Counted from the stretch's first letter, positions 22,892-45,159 are shown. The stretch is DNA of 64,000 bases from Candidatus Heimdallarchaeota archaeon (GCA_011364965.1 RDOB01000003.1:304939-368938); one strand, 5' to 3'. Notes: a model not told the origin generated them from the letters alone. Numbers and translations: made by a program.

Positions 22892-23335
22892 ATGATTTTT
22901 ACATATAATTTAACGGTGAAATATTTGCCTTTTTGGATTTACATGCTTTTAGTTGGACCAAAAACTCAAGGATACAATCGAAGAATATACACAGGTTATA
23001 CCAAATATTTAAGTTCACGGATACTTCAACATTCAGGCATCAGCTCAATTAAAGGAGCAAAAATGACACGAAAGCAACCAATAGAATTTGTTTATGCAGA
23101 GAGTTACCCTACCCAAAAAAAGGCAATGCAAAGAGAAAAACAATTAAAACATATACACCCATATAATAAAAAAGACTACAAACTTAAATTAATAATGCAA
23201 TTCCAAGAAAACAATGATGAGTTTATTAGAAGTATTAATGACAAATTAATTGAGTATTTTAAATTTCAAAAAGATTTTATTCAAGATTTGAAAAATTTAG
23301 AGAGTATTCTCTCTGTCCATCTAGATAATGTTTAG
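22892..23335 (+). CDS. GIY-YIG nuclease (Slx1/YhbQ-like) with coiled C-terminal tail
   Basis: WIYML...YTGYT..L..RI.QH...GAK.TR...AMQREKQLK. Confidence 0.85.
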   Translation: MIFTYNLTVKYLPFWIYMLLVGPKTQGYNRRIYTGYTKYLSSRILQHSGISSIKGAKMTRKQPIEFVYAESYPTQKKAMQREKQLKHIHPYNKKDYKLKLIMQFQENNDEFIRSINDKLIEYFKFQKDFIQDLKNLESILSVHLDNV

Positions 23336-23445
23336 ATTTAATTACGAAGGATTTATTTTATTCGTGTCATCCTGACAATAAAGTAATCTTTAAGTAAATT
23401 TGGTTTTACAGAAAATTAGATTGAAGTAGCTCTTGGATGTGATCT

Positions 23446-42357: not shown

Positions 42358-42399
42358 TTCTAAAACTTTGATAGAATACACTAACTTTGGAAAAAAACC

Positions 42400-45159
42400 T
42401 CAGTGATATGTATGGGAAAATAAATTATAACTTTCGTCAAGTGACACTGCTTCTCCTTTCATTATCTTCTTCAAGATGTGTTTGGCACCCAATTTATCTA
42501 ATTTTGTATTATTATGACTACAGAAAGGAAGGAATGTGCATTTAGGACAACCTGAAGGCTGCAAGCAATCACAAAGTAATAAATTGTATGCTCGTTTTAG
42601 CATCTTTTTAAGATGATAGCGAAGCATAGCACAAACTCCTGATCCATTAGGTTGATCATATAGGAGAATATAACTTTGAGGCATTAAAGCAAGTCCATTT
42701 ATCTCATTCAAATTCCCTCCAATGAAAGGAAGACTTGCATGGAGAAGAACATGAACAAGAGTATGAATAGAGGCAATTTGGTTCTGAACGTCTGTGTCCA
42801 ATTGATGTTTTTCGCTTTCAGGTATTCTAAATATTAATCCTTTTGATTTTGCAGAATAGTAAATTGGCTCCCGTAATTTATGAGCTGAAGATCCATTAGG
42901 AGTATTAAGTATAAATCCATGGACAGCTTGACGAATTTTAACTGATATATCGGCCACTTCAATATTATAAACACAATATCTATCCTCAATGTTTAGAATT
43001 TCAGGTTTTACCGAACATAAAGGGTAGGTTTGACCCCATTTTATGTGGGGTTTTGTTAAGATTGCAGTTCCTTGGAATCCGTTAAAATTAAAACTAGCAA
43101 CACGATAGCGAATGCCACCTGCATAATAAAAAGCCCCGGGATATAATTCCAACATAGCCATTGGTAGGGATCGTTTACCAATGATAGATCCTCCTCTAAC
43201 TTTAATGTGTATTTCATGGTTTTTTCCTCTAATAGAATATTGACGTGCGTGTTCTTGTCCTTTTAACGTCGGATAAAAGGGAGAATTATCTGATTGCTGT
43301 AATAATTTTTTCTCATACAATTGCTGAATAGTACTAATATGATCTGGAAACTCAGTACTCTCGAGAGGTCTATCTAAAGAGGCGCATAATAATTGATATT
43401 TGATTACAACAGGATTTCCAGGATCAAGGTAAATATCTTCAATATCATTATAGTATTGATCAGGATGCTTATAATAATAATGTGAAATTGGATCCTCAGC
43501 ATTCAGGAGTACAATTGCAAGGGCTTCCTGACCTTTCCTTCCAGCGCGCCCAATGCGTTGCATAGCCCGATTCACACTCACAGGAGGGGTGATTACAATA
43601 TCCAAATCCCCTTGATCTATTCCTAATTCATAAGTAGGTGTGGCAACAAGTATATTGAGTTTTCCTTCCCTGAAATCAGTTTCAACCTCTTGACGAATCC
43701 TTTGATCCAATCCTGCTCTATGGATTCCGATGTTATTTGCTTTACCTCCAAGTTTCTGATATAGTAATTCTGCAGCACGATGAGAATCTTGAAAAATAAG
43801 CATTTTTCCTCTTCCCTTAATCGCATTTACCAAACTATTAGTGCTATCTAATGTTGATATCCCAGCAAAAGGAGCAAGCATAAGGAAGTGCGTACGTCCC
43901 CTACGTCCCTTTTTGCACTCAATAATTTTGACCTCCCTGTTTAAAAGACGTTCTACAAATTTCTGGGGATTAGCAACAGTAGCGGAGGCGCCGATATACT
44001 GAAGTTTTTGACCAACAATGCGTTCAAGTCTTCTTAATATGAAGTGCATATTAGAACCGAATGTACCTGAATAGGAATGGATCTCGTCTAATATCACAAT
44101 TTTCAGGTTTGACAAAAGATCCTGAAACTTCTGAGAATTTTTTCCAAGCCCTAAGTGATAGTGCAGAATGTCAGGATTCGTTATGAGGATTTCGGGAGGA
44201 TCAGAAAAGATCTTTTGACGCCAATAATGTGTTGTATCACCATCAAATACCTTTATAGAGAGACCAACAGTAGAGACAACCTCCTCCAACTTACGTTTTT
44301 GATCTTTAGCAAGGGCTTTCATTGGGTAGATTATCACAATTTGTACGCCACAGTCTTTAAATCCTTGAATTTTCAATAATGAAGGAATTAAAAATGCTTC
44401 AGTCTTTCCAGTACCAGTTGGAGCTACAATGCATACATCTTGGGAATTACGAATTGCGTTAAAAGCTGAATATTGGTATTTATAGAGTTTATTAATCCCC
44501 CTCGATTTTAAAAGTGCTATTAACTTGGAATTTTCAAGGCATTCTACAATTGGTCCATATTCTCCGCTCTGTTCCTCAAATATCCGATAATCTACAATTT
44601 GATGTTGAGCATAAGAAATAACACGTTGTAATCCCAATGGGAGATCTATTGATTTTACATTGAAAAATTCCTCAAATTCAGGAAGGTTCATAATCGGACG
44701 GGGTGCAGTTTTCTTCATTTCCAGTCCATCAATAAGCCCGTATTCCTGATTCTTGGGAATTTCTTTCAACGTACCAGAATTAATCAACCTTAATTTTGTT
44801 GCTTTTTGCAAACCTGAACTATTTCCACCAGCTAAAGCATAATATTTTTGTAAACAGAATTCAGCTTTTAAATTATCTTTTATTGAAAAATAAAGAGAAG
44901 ATAAGTTCTTCCAAGTATCACGATTAGAATTATCAATAGTTAGAATACGTCCATAAGTATTCTTGGCCTCGTCAATCCTTTTCAGCTTGATAAATTGATT
45001 TGCTATCTCTGTAAGAAGACTTATCGGGGGACTTGGGTGAGTACGGAGTGCTAGGTCACATAATTCTCTAAGAAATTCTTCTTTATCCCGATTTAGTTTA
45101 TAATCTTCTAAAAGCTCACGATAACGATCCCAATAAGTTAGTTCTAGTTGATTAGTCAT
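42400..45159 (-). CDS. Hrq1/MrfA/SftH-type DEAD/H helicase with DUF1998 Zn domain and N-terminal TPR
   Basis: YQYSA, APTGTGKT, DEIH, SAT, HRAG, TYELGID, QRIGRAGR; C-terminal CDC....GCPKC. Confidence 0.9.
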   Translation of the reverse strand: MTNQLELTYWDRYRELLEDYKLNRDKEEFLRELCDLALRTHPSPPISLLTEIANQFIKLKRIDEAKNTYGRILTIDNSNRDTWKNLSSLYFSIKDNLKAEFCLQKYYALAGGNSSGLQKATKLRLINSGTLKEIPKNQEYGLIDGLEMKKTAPRPIMNLPEFEEFFNVKSIDLPLGLQRVISYAQHQIVDYRIFEEQSGEYGPIVECLENSKLIALLKSRGINKLYKYQYSAFNAIRNSQDVCIVAPTGTGKTEAFLIPSLLKIQGFKDCGVQIVIIYPMKALAKDQKRKLEEVVSTVGLSIKVFDGDTTHYWRQKIFSDPPEILITNPDILHYHLGLGKNSQKFQDLLSNLKIVILDEIHSYSGTFGSNMHFILRRLERIVGQKLQYIGASATVANPQKFVERLLNREVKIIECKKGRRGRTHFLMLAPFAGISTLDSTNSLVNAIKGRGKMLIFQDSHRAAELLYQKLGGKANNIGIHRAGLDQRIRQEVETDFREGKLNILVATPTYELGIDQGDLDIVITPPVSVNRAMQRIGRAGRKGQEALAIVLLNAEDPISHYYYKHPDQYYNDIEDIYLDPGNPVVIKYQLLCASLDRPLESTEFPDHISTIQQLYEKKLLQQSDNSPFYPTLKGQEHARQYSIRGKNHEIHIKVRGGSIIGKRSLPMAMLELYPGAFYYAGGIRYRVASFNFNGFQGTAILTKPHIKWGQTYPLCSVKPEILNIEDRYCVYNIEVADISVKIRQAVHGFILNTPNGSSAHKLREPIYYSAKSKGLIFRIPESEKHQLDTDVQNQIASIHTLVHVLLHASLPFIGGNLNEINGLALMPQSYILLYDQPNGSGVCAMLRYHLKKMLKRAYNLLLCDCLQPSGCPKCTFLPFCSHNNTKLDKLGAKHILKKIMKGEAVSLDESYNLFSHTYH

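Follow-up and report, generated by a model that had tools for sequence, protein, structure and literature searches.

A possible genus-wide regulon joining envelope genes to recombination and repair paralogues in Hodarchaeales-type archaea

We analysed a 64,000-nucleotide (nt) stretch of a Hodarchaeales-type Asgard genome (G000:C11:304939-368938, hereafter the window; GC content ~33%), in which recombination and repair genes are packed together with genes for membrane and surface proteins. The reading that we favour, though only tentatively, is that the part from ~24.9 to 48.2 kb forms a genus-wide co-regulated island, which brings an envelope operon together with a dedicated set for recombination and repair and is perhaps membrane-tethered and induced by damage or envelope stress. 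It comprises seven units associated with one promoter box: the 24990 unit (unnamed genes are called by their lowest window coordinate), the envelope operon (box found in relatives, degenerated here), radA followed by xpd, a Cys-rich gene followed by a Hef-like gene, 41038, the MrfA gene and the LuxE/LuxC pair. No other evidence speaks as strongly as the box for most of the island being a single regulon.

Gene content and layout

Eighteen genes lie between 22.9 and 45.2 kb and were sorted into blocks by strand and spacing. The plus strand comes first, with a GIY-YIG gene, a gene for an N-anchored protein of 483 amino acids (aa), and the unit made up of 24990, a Cas4-like gene and 26112. A minus-strand operon of five genes follows, which runs from a 1594-aa immunoglobulin (Ig)-like protein through a YdjM-like, a 350-aa anchored and a 146-aa protein to a 233-aa RecA-fold ATPase. 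Divergent from this envelope operon are radA and xpd, on which a 106-aa Cys-rich gene and the Hef-like gene converge. Then come 40028 and 40553 on the plus strand and, on the minus strand, mrfA with 41038 downstream of it; 41038 was counted as a separate unit because it has a promoter box of its own. The GC content of the island (0.31-0.33) is slightly below that of its flanks. Families were assigned with Pfam, NCBIfam, PADLOC, PHROGs and PDB sequence searches, and folds with structure models and Foldseek; transmembrane (TM) helices were scanned for. The genes of the island are:

24990..25451, plus: 153-aa protein of no family, first gene of its unit; orthologues 29-41% identical in the genus
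25454..26164, plus: Cas4/PD-(D/E)XK-like protein, 236 aa (PF12705, 4e-9; PADLOC Cas4, 5e-11)
26112..27041, plus: polytopic membrane protein, ~5 TM helices, 309 aa (TM scan)
27060..27761, minus: RadB/KaiC-like RecA-fold ATPase, 233 aa, last gene of the envelope operon (TIGR02237, 7e-8)
27758..28198, minus: truncated RecA fold without P-loop, 146 aa (model, Foldseek and alignment)
28204..29256, minus: 350-aa protein with signal peptide, ectodomain, C-terminal TM helix and short acidic tail (TM scan)
29241..29855, minus: YdjM/DUF1286-like membrane protein, 204 aa, with conserved His and Asp (PF04307)
29858..34642, minus: Ig-like repeat surface protein, 1594 aa, with signal peptide and C-terminal TM helix, first gene of the envelope operon (Big_13, Big_3_5; TM scan)
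34832..35839, plus: divergent RadA paralogue, 335 aa, HHH_5 and Rad51 domains (PF08423, 2.8e-70)
35960..37696, plus: XPD helicase, 578 aa (PF06733, PF13307)
37693..39585, minus: Hef/XPF-like protein, 630 aa (NF010337, 3.7e-21; 1wp9, 4.6e-5)
39582..39902, minus: Cys-rich acidic protein, 106 aa, first gene of the Hef-like unit; orthologues 41-76% identical
40028..40528, plus: 166-aa protein with conserved RIDLA...FFEAE and Cys cluster (NF033832, 2.5e-4, below threshold)
40553..41041, plus: TPR-like protein, 162 aa, with C-terminal Cys4 ribbon (Pfam scan)
41038..42306, minus: 422-aa protein with N-terminal 2-TM hairpin, ~120-aa conserved globular domain and variable acidic tail with short conserved motifs
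42400..45159, minus: MrfA/YprA-type helicase, 919 aa, with ~170-aa genus-specific N-terminal extension (Pfam, PDB search)
45292..48199, plus: LuxE-like acyl-protein synthetase and LuxC acyl-CoA reductase, carrying the box and lying beyond the island as first delimited

An earlier reading made from the sequence alone had named most of these gene classes, and the GIY-YIG, Cas4-like, RadA, XPD, Hef-like and MrfA genes as well as the two RecA folds all lie where it put them, its MmcB-like label being the weak one. Its five or more membrane or surface genes come to six in our TM scan (23446, 26112, 28204, 29241, 29858 and 41038), and the two TTAA stop-codon overlaps that it pointed out (37693-37696 and 41038-41041) are present and are ordinary convergent stop overlaps.

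A promoter box shared across the island

The box was generalised from orthologous promoters as ATTT[TC]N0-2[AG][AG]TAT[AT]TAA, and its exact form TTTTGGATATTTAA occurs only twice in the whole assembly, upstream of 24990 and of radA. The general form has 26 copies in the 2.97-Mb assembly, six of them within a 24-kb stretch of the island where 0.21 are expected (binomial 5.5e-8), an enrichment of ~28-fold. All six are correctly oriented and stand 30-85 nt upstream of the starts of 24990, radA, 39582, 41038, mrfA and the luxE-like gene. The ATTTY extension by itself accompanies 6 of 11 TATA-like cores in the island vs 20 of 718 elsewhere (Fisher 4.6e-7). The individual boxes, with their recurrence at orthologous promoters, are:

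24945..24959, plus: ATTTTGGATATTTAA, 30 nt upstream of the ATG at 24990; 5 of 8 relatives
34743..34757, plus: ATTTTGGATATTTAA, 74 nt upstream of radA; 7 of 14 relatives
39947..39961, minus: ATTTCTGATATATAA, 44 nt upstream of the start at 39902 (39582 gene); 3 of 15 relatives
42343..42357, minus: ATTTTGAATATATAA, 36 nt upstream of the start at 42306 (41038 gene); 4 of 11 relatives
45190-45205, minus (to mrfA), and 45209-45223, plus (to the LuxE-like gene): two back-to-back boxes; luxE box in 4 of 7 relatives

The promoter of the giant gene that opens the envelope operon has the box in 8 of 13 relatives, and in the window its ATT part has degenerated; the 40028 promoter has it in only 2 of 12. 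None of 50 flanking control genes and none of 71 internal operon genes in relatives has a box. The same holds for two genes at the left edge (0 of 9 relatives each):

22892..23335, plus: GIY-YIG nuclease-domain protein, 147 aa (PF01541, 8.9e-11)
23446..24897, plus: 483-aa protein with one N-terminal TM helix (TM scan); no match in Pfam, NCBIfam, PADLOC or PHROGs

On the strength of this distribution we redrew the borders of the island, leaving these two genes out and taking luxE and luxC in. The GIY-YIG gene adjoins the island, and it and its 483-aa neighbour lie outside the box regulon. Divergent from the GIY-YIG gene is a further membrane protein gene (19303-22686, minus; 1127 aa, ~20 predicted TM helices, 46-60% identity in the genus, no family match). 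At the other edge, the back-to-back arrangement of the luxE/luxC and mrfA boxes hints at lipid or acyl metabolism in the same regulon. The box is genus-specific, being absent from the XPD loci of other families.

Operon structure adds to this picture. The junctions of the five-gene envelope operon measure -16 to +5 nt, the Cas4-like gene overlaps 26112 by 53 nt, the 146-aa gene overlaps that of the RecA-fold ATPase by 4 nt, and the Cys-rich gene overlaps the Hef-like gene by 4 nt. The tight coupling of DNA-type with membrane genes, in the 53-nt overlap and in the envelope operon, was counted in favour of a co-regulated module. Gene content, operon structure, the shared box and its conservation can be read directly from the genomes; from them we infer that the units would be co-expressed, and that they may share a trigger and associate physically.

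Conservation within the genus

DNA of the genus is found in marine, mangrove or estuarine sediments. To assess synteny, all open reading frames (ORFs) of the window were searched with tblastn against the 18-60 kb that surround RadA orthologues in 15 members of the genus. Every informative genome keeps the island collinear, as far as its contigs allow. Rearrangements are few: in G001 and G016 the block from the Hef-like gene to MrfA is inverted and has moved beside the Cas4-like gene, remaining contiguous with the rest, and in G003 the block from 40028 to LuxC lies elsewhere. The sequence-only reading had staked its module on conserved synteny or co-regulation in relatives, and a collinear island and a recurring box are indeed found there, though the flanks are equally collinear. 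An apparent three-way split of the island in G015, with a 1964-aa fusion of RadA and the giant protein, was rejected: the record (CP070760-type; L050 17298-17397, L049, L031-L033) joins short contigs by 100-N spacers, one of which the fusion crosses. Other apparent fusions and any long-range order in this record are likewise not real.

XPD and MrfA neighbourhoods beyond the genus

Both helicases have orthologues across the class. Around those of MrfA in families f3, f5 and f6, no further gene of the island lies within 9 kb, and the linkage of MrfA is thus confined to the genus. For XPD, comparison of gene neighbourhoods indicates that the link to Hef or Hef-like genes is conserved outside the genus, and is suggestive only for the link to envelope genes. 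In six f4 genomes (L082 2453-17213; L083, L086-L089) an XPD cluster is convergent with Hef and runs from an RFC-large-like gene through XPD, a 1705-aa Ig-like surface protein, an anchored ectodomain, an N-anchored protein and a polytopic protein to a 228-aa RecA-fold ATPase. Family f6 has membrane genes, one of them homologous to the f4 polytopic protein, followed by XPD and a 40028-like gene, with Hef again convergent. In f3 XPD and a Hef-like gene of ~600 aa overlap, and anchored surface proteins often flank the two. In f5 (L100 6464-16277; L101 1224-13683) XPD belongs to a long series of genes on one strand that also holds small polytopic membrane proteins, two unassigned proteins of ~1100 aa and, in 2 of 3 genomes, a family-B DNA polymerase. 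Overall, a co-directional neighbour with a TM helix lies within 60 bp at 12 of 24 XPD loci, vs a genome baseline of 17% and 1 of 10 MrfA control loci.

Several further observations concern these neighbourhoods. In the sister family f2 (L085 79-3576, 7459-11987) a 632-aa gene without family assignment precedes XPD, which overlaps a gene for a 265-aa TM-hairpin protein weakly similar to 41038 (hhalign 43%), and a 1165-aa MrfA-related gene lies 5 kb away. In f3, the gene ahead of MrfA on its strand encodes an anchored surface protein of ~1020-1066 aa with signal peptide and C-terminal TM helix (L069 5121-8321, L071 11800-14865, L074 5011-8085), which makes MrfA a second repair helicase paired with a surface protein. 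Two candidate generalisations were dropped: orthology of the f4 envelope operon with that of the window's family (f1), for which hhalign and hidden Markov model (HMM) searches gave only generic RecA-fold similarity, and an enrichment of giant proteins beside XPD, which holds against the genome-wide rate of G000 and fails against the MrfA control loci, since the f3 loci among these bring the anchored neighbour just described (~1050 aa); it is left as a weak point only.

Recombination and repair proteins

From the protein sequences, the island appears to hold its own private collection of paralogues and pseudo-enzymes, grouped around a pair of working helicases and a single working small ATPase. 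RadA keeps its HhH domain and RecA core with a Walker A altered to GENGCGKT, and has LKKG in place of the FxxA polymerisation motif and lacks the QLP...GGL insertion. It is the most divergent of five RadA-like genes in the genome, at 42-46% identity to the RadA of other families as against 47-57% for the copies on contigs C9, C13 and C14. Its orthologues (about 71-83% identical) occur in 17 of 21 genus genomes, with relatives of 53-54% identity in the sister family. Among the other RadA-like genes, C9:375045-376157, C13:1757-2776 and C14:20120-21148 are near-canonical, and C16:92990-93946 is shorter and without a clear HhH domain.

XPD is single-copy in the genome, matches archaeal XPD structures at 2e-31 and qualifies as an XPD/Rad3 helicase by its Walker A (GFGKT), DEGH and four Fe-S cysteines (C106, C120, C125 and C169 of 578 aa). 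Its frame is open from 35939; the first ATG, at 36101, comes only after the Walker A sequence. The window's I-I-D-S-N aligns with the orthologue's initial M-I-D-S-N at an ATA at about 35960, with GGAG a few bases upstream. Because the orthologue has ATG at this position and Walker A precedes the first ATG, we place the start at this ATA, probably a non-canonical start or a sequencing error. MrfA, also single-copy, has DEAD (PF00270), Helicase_C (PF00271) and MZB (PF09369) domains and matches the YprA structure 6znp at 4.6e-66, which makes it an MrfA/YprA helicase. Both helicases look active.

The small RecA-fold ATPase has intact Walker A and B motifs and the RecA core, and is confined to the genus (17 of 21 genomes). 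Its score against TIGR02237 is 32.6 bits for a cut-off of 172.4, too low for RadB at equivalog level. The model of its 146-aa partner (predicted local distance difference test score, pLDDT, 88) matches RadA, KaiC and Rad51 paralogues (XRCC3 complex, BCDX2) at 1e-4 in Foldseek. In the Hef-like protein Walker A and DEAH are replaced in all orthologues, so that by its helicase motifs it does not qualify as Hef, Pfam detects no ERCC4 domain, and some orthologues lack the C-terminal 150 aa; a canonical 759-aa Hef is encoded elsewhere in the genome, on contig C4. RadA, the Hef-like protein and the RadB-like ATPase are genus-specific paralogues and not housekeeping copies, as would fit a dedicated set.

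Orthologues of the Cas4-like protein share only 21-28% identity in the genus. Their alignment conserves the Cys cluster and QxxxY, and its acidic and Lys columns of D...(D/E)xK read GxPS and I-Q; since the expected D...ExK positions are not conserved, the protein is probably inactive. It, the Hef-like protein and the 146-aa RecA fold all lack catalytic motifs and look inactive by sequence. The 40028 protein, possibly a PD-(D/E)XK fold to judge from its motifs, had been labelled MmcB-like. This weak label has its sole basis in a match to the sce7726 family below threshold (NF033832, 21 bits vs a cut-off of 70); Pfam gave no MmcB family match for the protein. Two other families have homologues adjoining XPD or Hef (hhalign 98.4% to the f6 XPD neighbour; tblastn matches in L081 and L083).

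MrfA and 41038 may be physically linked. A complex prediction for MrfA residues 1-215 with 41038 residues 60-422 scored 0.36 vs 0.00 for the best control, a range in which the mark was reached by only 7 of 80 solved complexes (at scores of 0.60 or below) and by both of the mismatched pairs that passed. In all, 58 of the 80 solved complexes and 2 of 110 mismatched pairs reach that mark. With runs sharing at least 13% of contacts and a partner pLDDT of at least 47, the prediction lends weak support to a contact between the MrfA N-terminus and 41038.

Envelope proteins

The YdjM-like copy of the window scores 23.2 bits against PF04307 (cut-off 29), and all 15 of its orthologues match, at best at 4.2e-8. 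The 350-aa protein 28204 has no family match in Pfam or NCBIfam. In the 24990 unit, 26112 is the only polytopic protein of the island without an assignment and has no family match either. It conserves the motifs PFRWIHVYLHV, DENPG and PSxNDWY, with invariant H80, H84, D128, E129, N130, H184, N200 and D201. This residue pattern fits a membrane-embedded metal site and suggests a membrane metallo-enzyme as much as a pore. For its model (pLDDT 65) no PDB fold came up at E<=0.001, nor did a VirB6-type pore; with so weak a model, a known fold is possible.

Regulon or inherited gene order

The strongest competitor of the co-regulated island is plain inheritance, in which repair paralogues and an unrelated surface operon have been adjacent since the genus ancestor and the box is a promoter variant without a common regulator; we consider this the less probable account and on balance unlikely, and several results nevertheless weigh for it and against co-regulation. 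Collinearity takes in unrelated genes to either side as well, between 12957 and 50414 (HMGL-like, LuxE/LuxC, HEAT and Lrp), and synteny in the genus is therefore by itself no proof of function and possibly mere inheritance. Composition varies within the genus: G003 and G012 lack 26112, 27758 and the RadB-like gene, and G008 and G014 lack the RadB-like gene, losses which imply that the link between envelope and RecA-type genes is dispensable. Strict box matches are found at only 17-62% of orthologous promoters. With luxE and luxC under the box the regulon is not purely DNA-related, and the box genes outside the island look unrelated to it (a subtilase, an 865-aa protein before TldD/PmbA genes, a small GTPase and a PEP-synthase-like protein). 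Outside the genus, MrfA stands apart from the other island genes, as described above, and hhalign and HMM searches detected no homology between families for any giant protein or for the majority of membrane proteins. The RecA-fold ATPase of f4 is not specifically nearest to that of f1, and ORFs of at least 1000 aa are about equally common around MrfA control loci and around XPD. Adjacency to a membrane gene is in any case not rare, such proteins making up 34% of ORFs by a crude hydropathy scan.

Inherited order does not readily account for the ~28-fold enrichment of the box and its absence from the 50 flanking control promoters, nor for operons in which DNA-type and membrane genes overlap. The rearrangement in G001 and G016 left the blocks adjacent, and f4 has an analogous cluster of XPD, a giant protein, membrane proteins, a RecA-fold ATPase and Hef. 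These points lead us to prefer co-regulation.

If the island is indeed co-regulated, one signal, be it DNA damage or another stress sensed at the envelope, would switch its units on together. The RecA-fold pair and a polymerisation-defective RadA paralogue might then act as mediators in the manner of Rad51 paralogues, XPD and MrfA would unwind damaged or branched DNA, and the dead Hef-like and Cas4-like proteins could serve as DNA-binding scaffolds. The membrane proteins may tether the recombination machinery or signal to it.

DNA exchange and comparison with known systems

A more ambitious alternative is an apparatus for DNA exchange or uptake upon cell contact, in which the giant adhesin would make the contact, 26112 or the YdjM-like protein would be the conduit, the RecA-fold ATPase and/or XPD would drive the DNA, and the RadA paralogue would recombine what comes in. 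It draws on the same co-regulation and operon evidence, and on the occurrence of XPD in operons with polytopic membrane proteins (f5, f6) and with surface proteins (f3, f4). There is precedent in the Ced, Ted and Ups systems. The defining parts of Ced and Ted are a VirB4/HerA-like ATPase (CedB/TedB), a VirB6-like channel and a VirB2-like pilin. In Thermoproteales, HerA, Rad50 and ParA homologues are common beside the import genes of Ted loci, and Ced and Ups tie surface structures to recombination after damage (PMC9905601). The island resembles them in being chromosomal and in pairing membrane or surface parts with recombination, just as Ted loci carry repair-type genes (HerA, Rad50). Unlike Ced and Ted, it has no VirB4/HerA-like ATPase, VirB2-like pilin or recognisable VirB6/CedA-like channel, and holds instead giant Ig-like, YdjM-like and RecA-fold proteins, XPD and MrfA.

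The searches behind this difference agree with the sequence-only reading, which had seen neither a VirB4/HerA ATPase nor a pilin in the window. A whole-genome search with PF01935 and PF12846 placed no VirB4/HerA-type gene there, the three DUF87 genes of the genome lying on other contigs without a box nearby, and Pfam and NCBIfam scans of the island proteins, covering ORFs of 80 aa and above, gave no match to such an ATPase or to pilin or pilus-assembly families. The only 2-TM hairpin noticed, to be set beside the two helices of a VirB2/CedA1-like pilin, is part of the 422-aa protein 41038. Two candidates beside XPD in other families were rejected as VirB4/HerA: a gene of 854-862 aa in f5, which is the family-B DNA polymerase, and a 525-aa gene upstream of XPD in f4 and f7, which is RFC-large-like. 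Of the membrane proteins proposed for comparison with CedA, ComEC and VirB6, 28204 and 41038 are anchored by a single pass and a hairpin respectively and are not channels, and 26112 (~5 TM helices, vs 6-7 in a VirB6/CedA-like channel) has a modest model with no match to a solved fold; at the other loci with the motif we found none of the translocases or fusogens that had been proposed as targets there.

RecA-fold ATPases of 230 aa are not known to be DNA translocases, which also counts against exchange, as does the loss of catalytic motifs in several candidate enzymes. We regard such an apparatus as unlikely, and as slightly more doubtful its fuller version for Heimdallarchaeia: a chromosomal exchange and recombination apparatus acting on cell contact and independent of type IV secretion systems, with giant adhesin, small membrane proteins and RecA-fold ATPases working with XPD and Hef-like proteins, and feeding a dedicated RadA paralogue in Hodarchaeales. 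Of the proposed module tying cell contact or DNA uptake to recombination, synteny and the shared box bear out the linkage, and the uptake or contact step finds no support. DNA exchange is speculation, and nothing shows movement of DNA between cells.

The least probable account is a domesticated mobile-element remnant or defence island, whose nuclease, helicase and ATPase genes evolve fast and entered the genus ancestor in a single capture: many island proteins are only 21-45% identical in the genus (vs about 71-83% for RadA), phage and defence settings repeatedly feature Cas4-like, AAA_24/Sak4-like and MZB-helicase domains, and GC content is slightly low, but PADLOC and PHROGs gave generic domains only (for PADLOC, helicase and Cas4), no integrase, tRNA, or phage structural or replication gene was found in the island, its location is the same in all genus members, and XPD and MrfA are sole genomic copies with class-wide orthologues.

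The co-regulated island can also be set beside other known systems, though as a whole it falls within none of them, and the cluster is undescribed as far as a full-text literature search showed. Like the Rad51-paralogue mediators (Rad55-Rad57, Shu, BCDX2) and euryarchaeal RadB, it couples a small Walker-intact RecA fold to one without a P-loop, beside a RadA copy; it differs in that the putative pair ends a surface/membrane operon and scores far below the RadB cut-off. Its MrfA shares the DEAD, Helicase_C and MZB architecture of Bacillus subtilis MrfAB (YprA/YprB) and eukaryotic Hrq1, but an MrfB-type exonuclease is absent, the downstream partner (41038) is membrane-anchored and of no known family, and there is an N-terminal extension. 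Set beside archaeal Hef and eukaryotic XPF and FANCM, the Hef-like protein has the two-lobe superfamily 2 (SF2) layout of the Hef helicase domain, without a detected ERCC4 nuclease or HhH2 domain. Its loss of ATPase motifs recalls eukaryotic XPF, which has an inactive helicase-like domain. Finally, as in the damage regulons of Escherichia coli (SOS, with ydjM) and Sulfolobus (response to ultraviolet light, with ups and ced), repair and envelope genes including a YdjM-family member are under one presumed control; here, in contrast, the genes form a physical cluster, and nothing implies a LexA-type system.

Significance

Were the genes no more than inherited neighbours, the island would still be a useful catalogue of lineage-specific repair paralogues, and not a new machine. 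A DNA-exchange apparatus, if true, would mean that the archaea most closely related to eukaryotes have a new way of transferring DNA. Should the units work jointly, as in the co-regulated island that we tentatively favour, they would form an undescribed system in the archaeal lineage nearest eukaryotes, joining envelope proteins to a private recombination set. Several of its members belong to a type, pseudo-enzyme or 'paralogue mediator', that is characteristic of eukaryotic Rad51-paralogue, XPF and FANCM biology. Archaeal XPD gains a concrete, testable genomic context, and the promoter box provides a handle for finding the regulator and the inducing signal.

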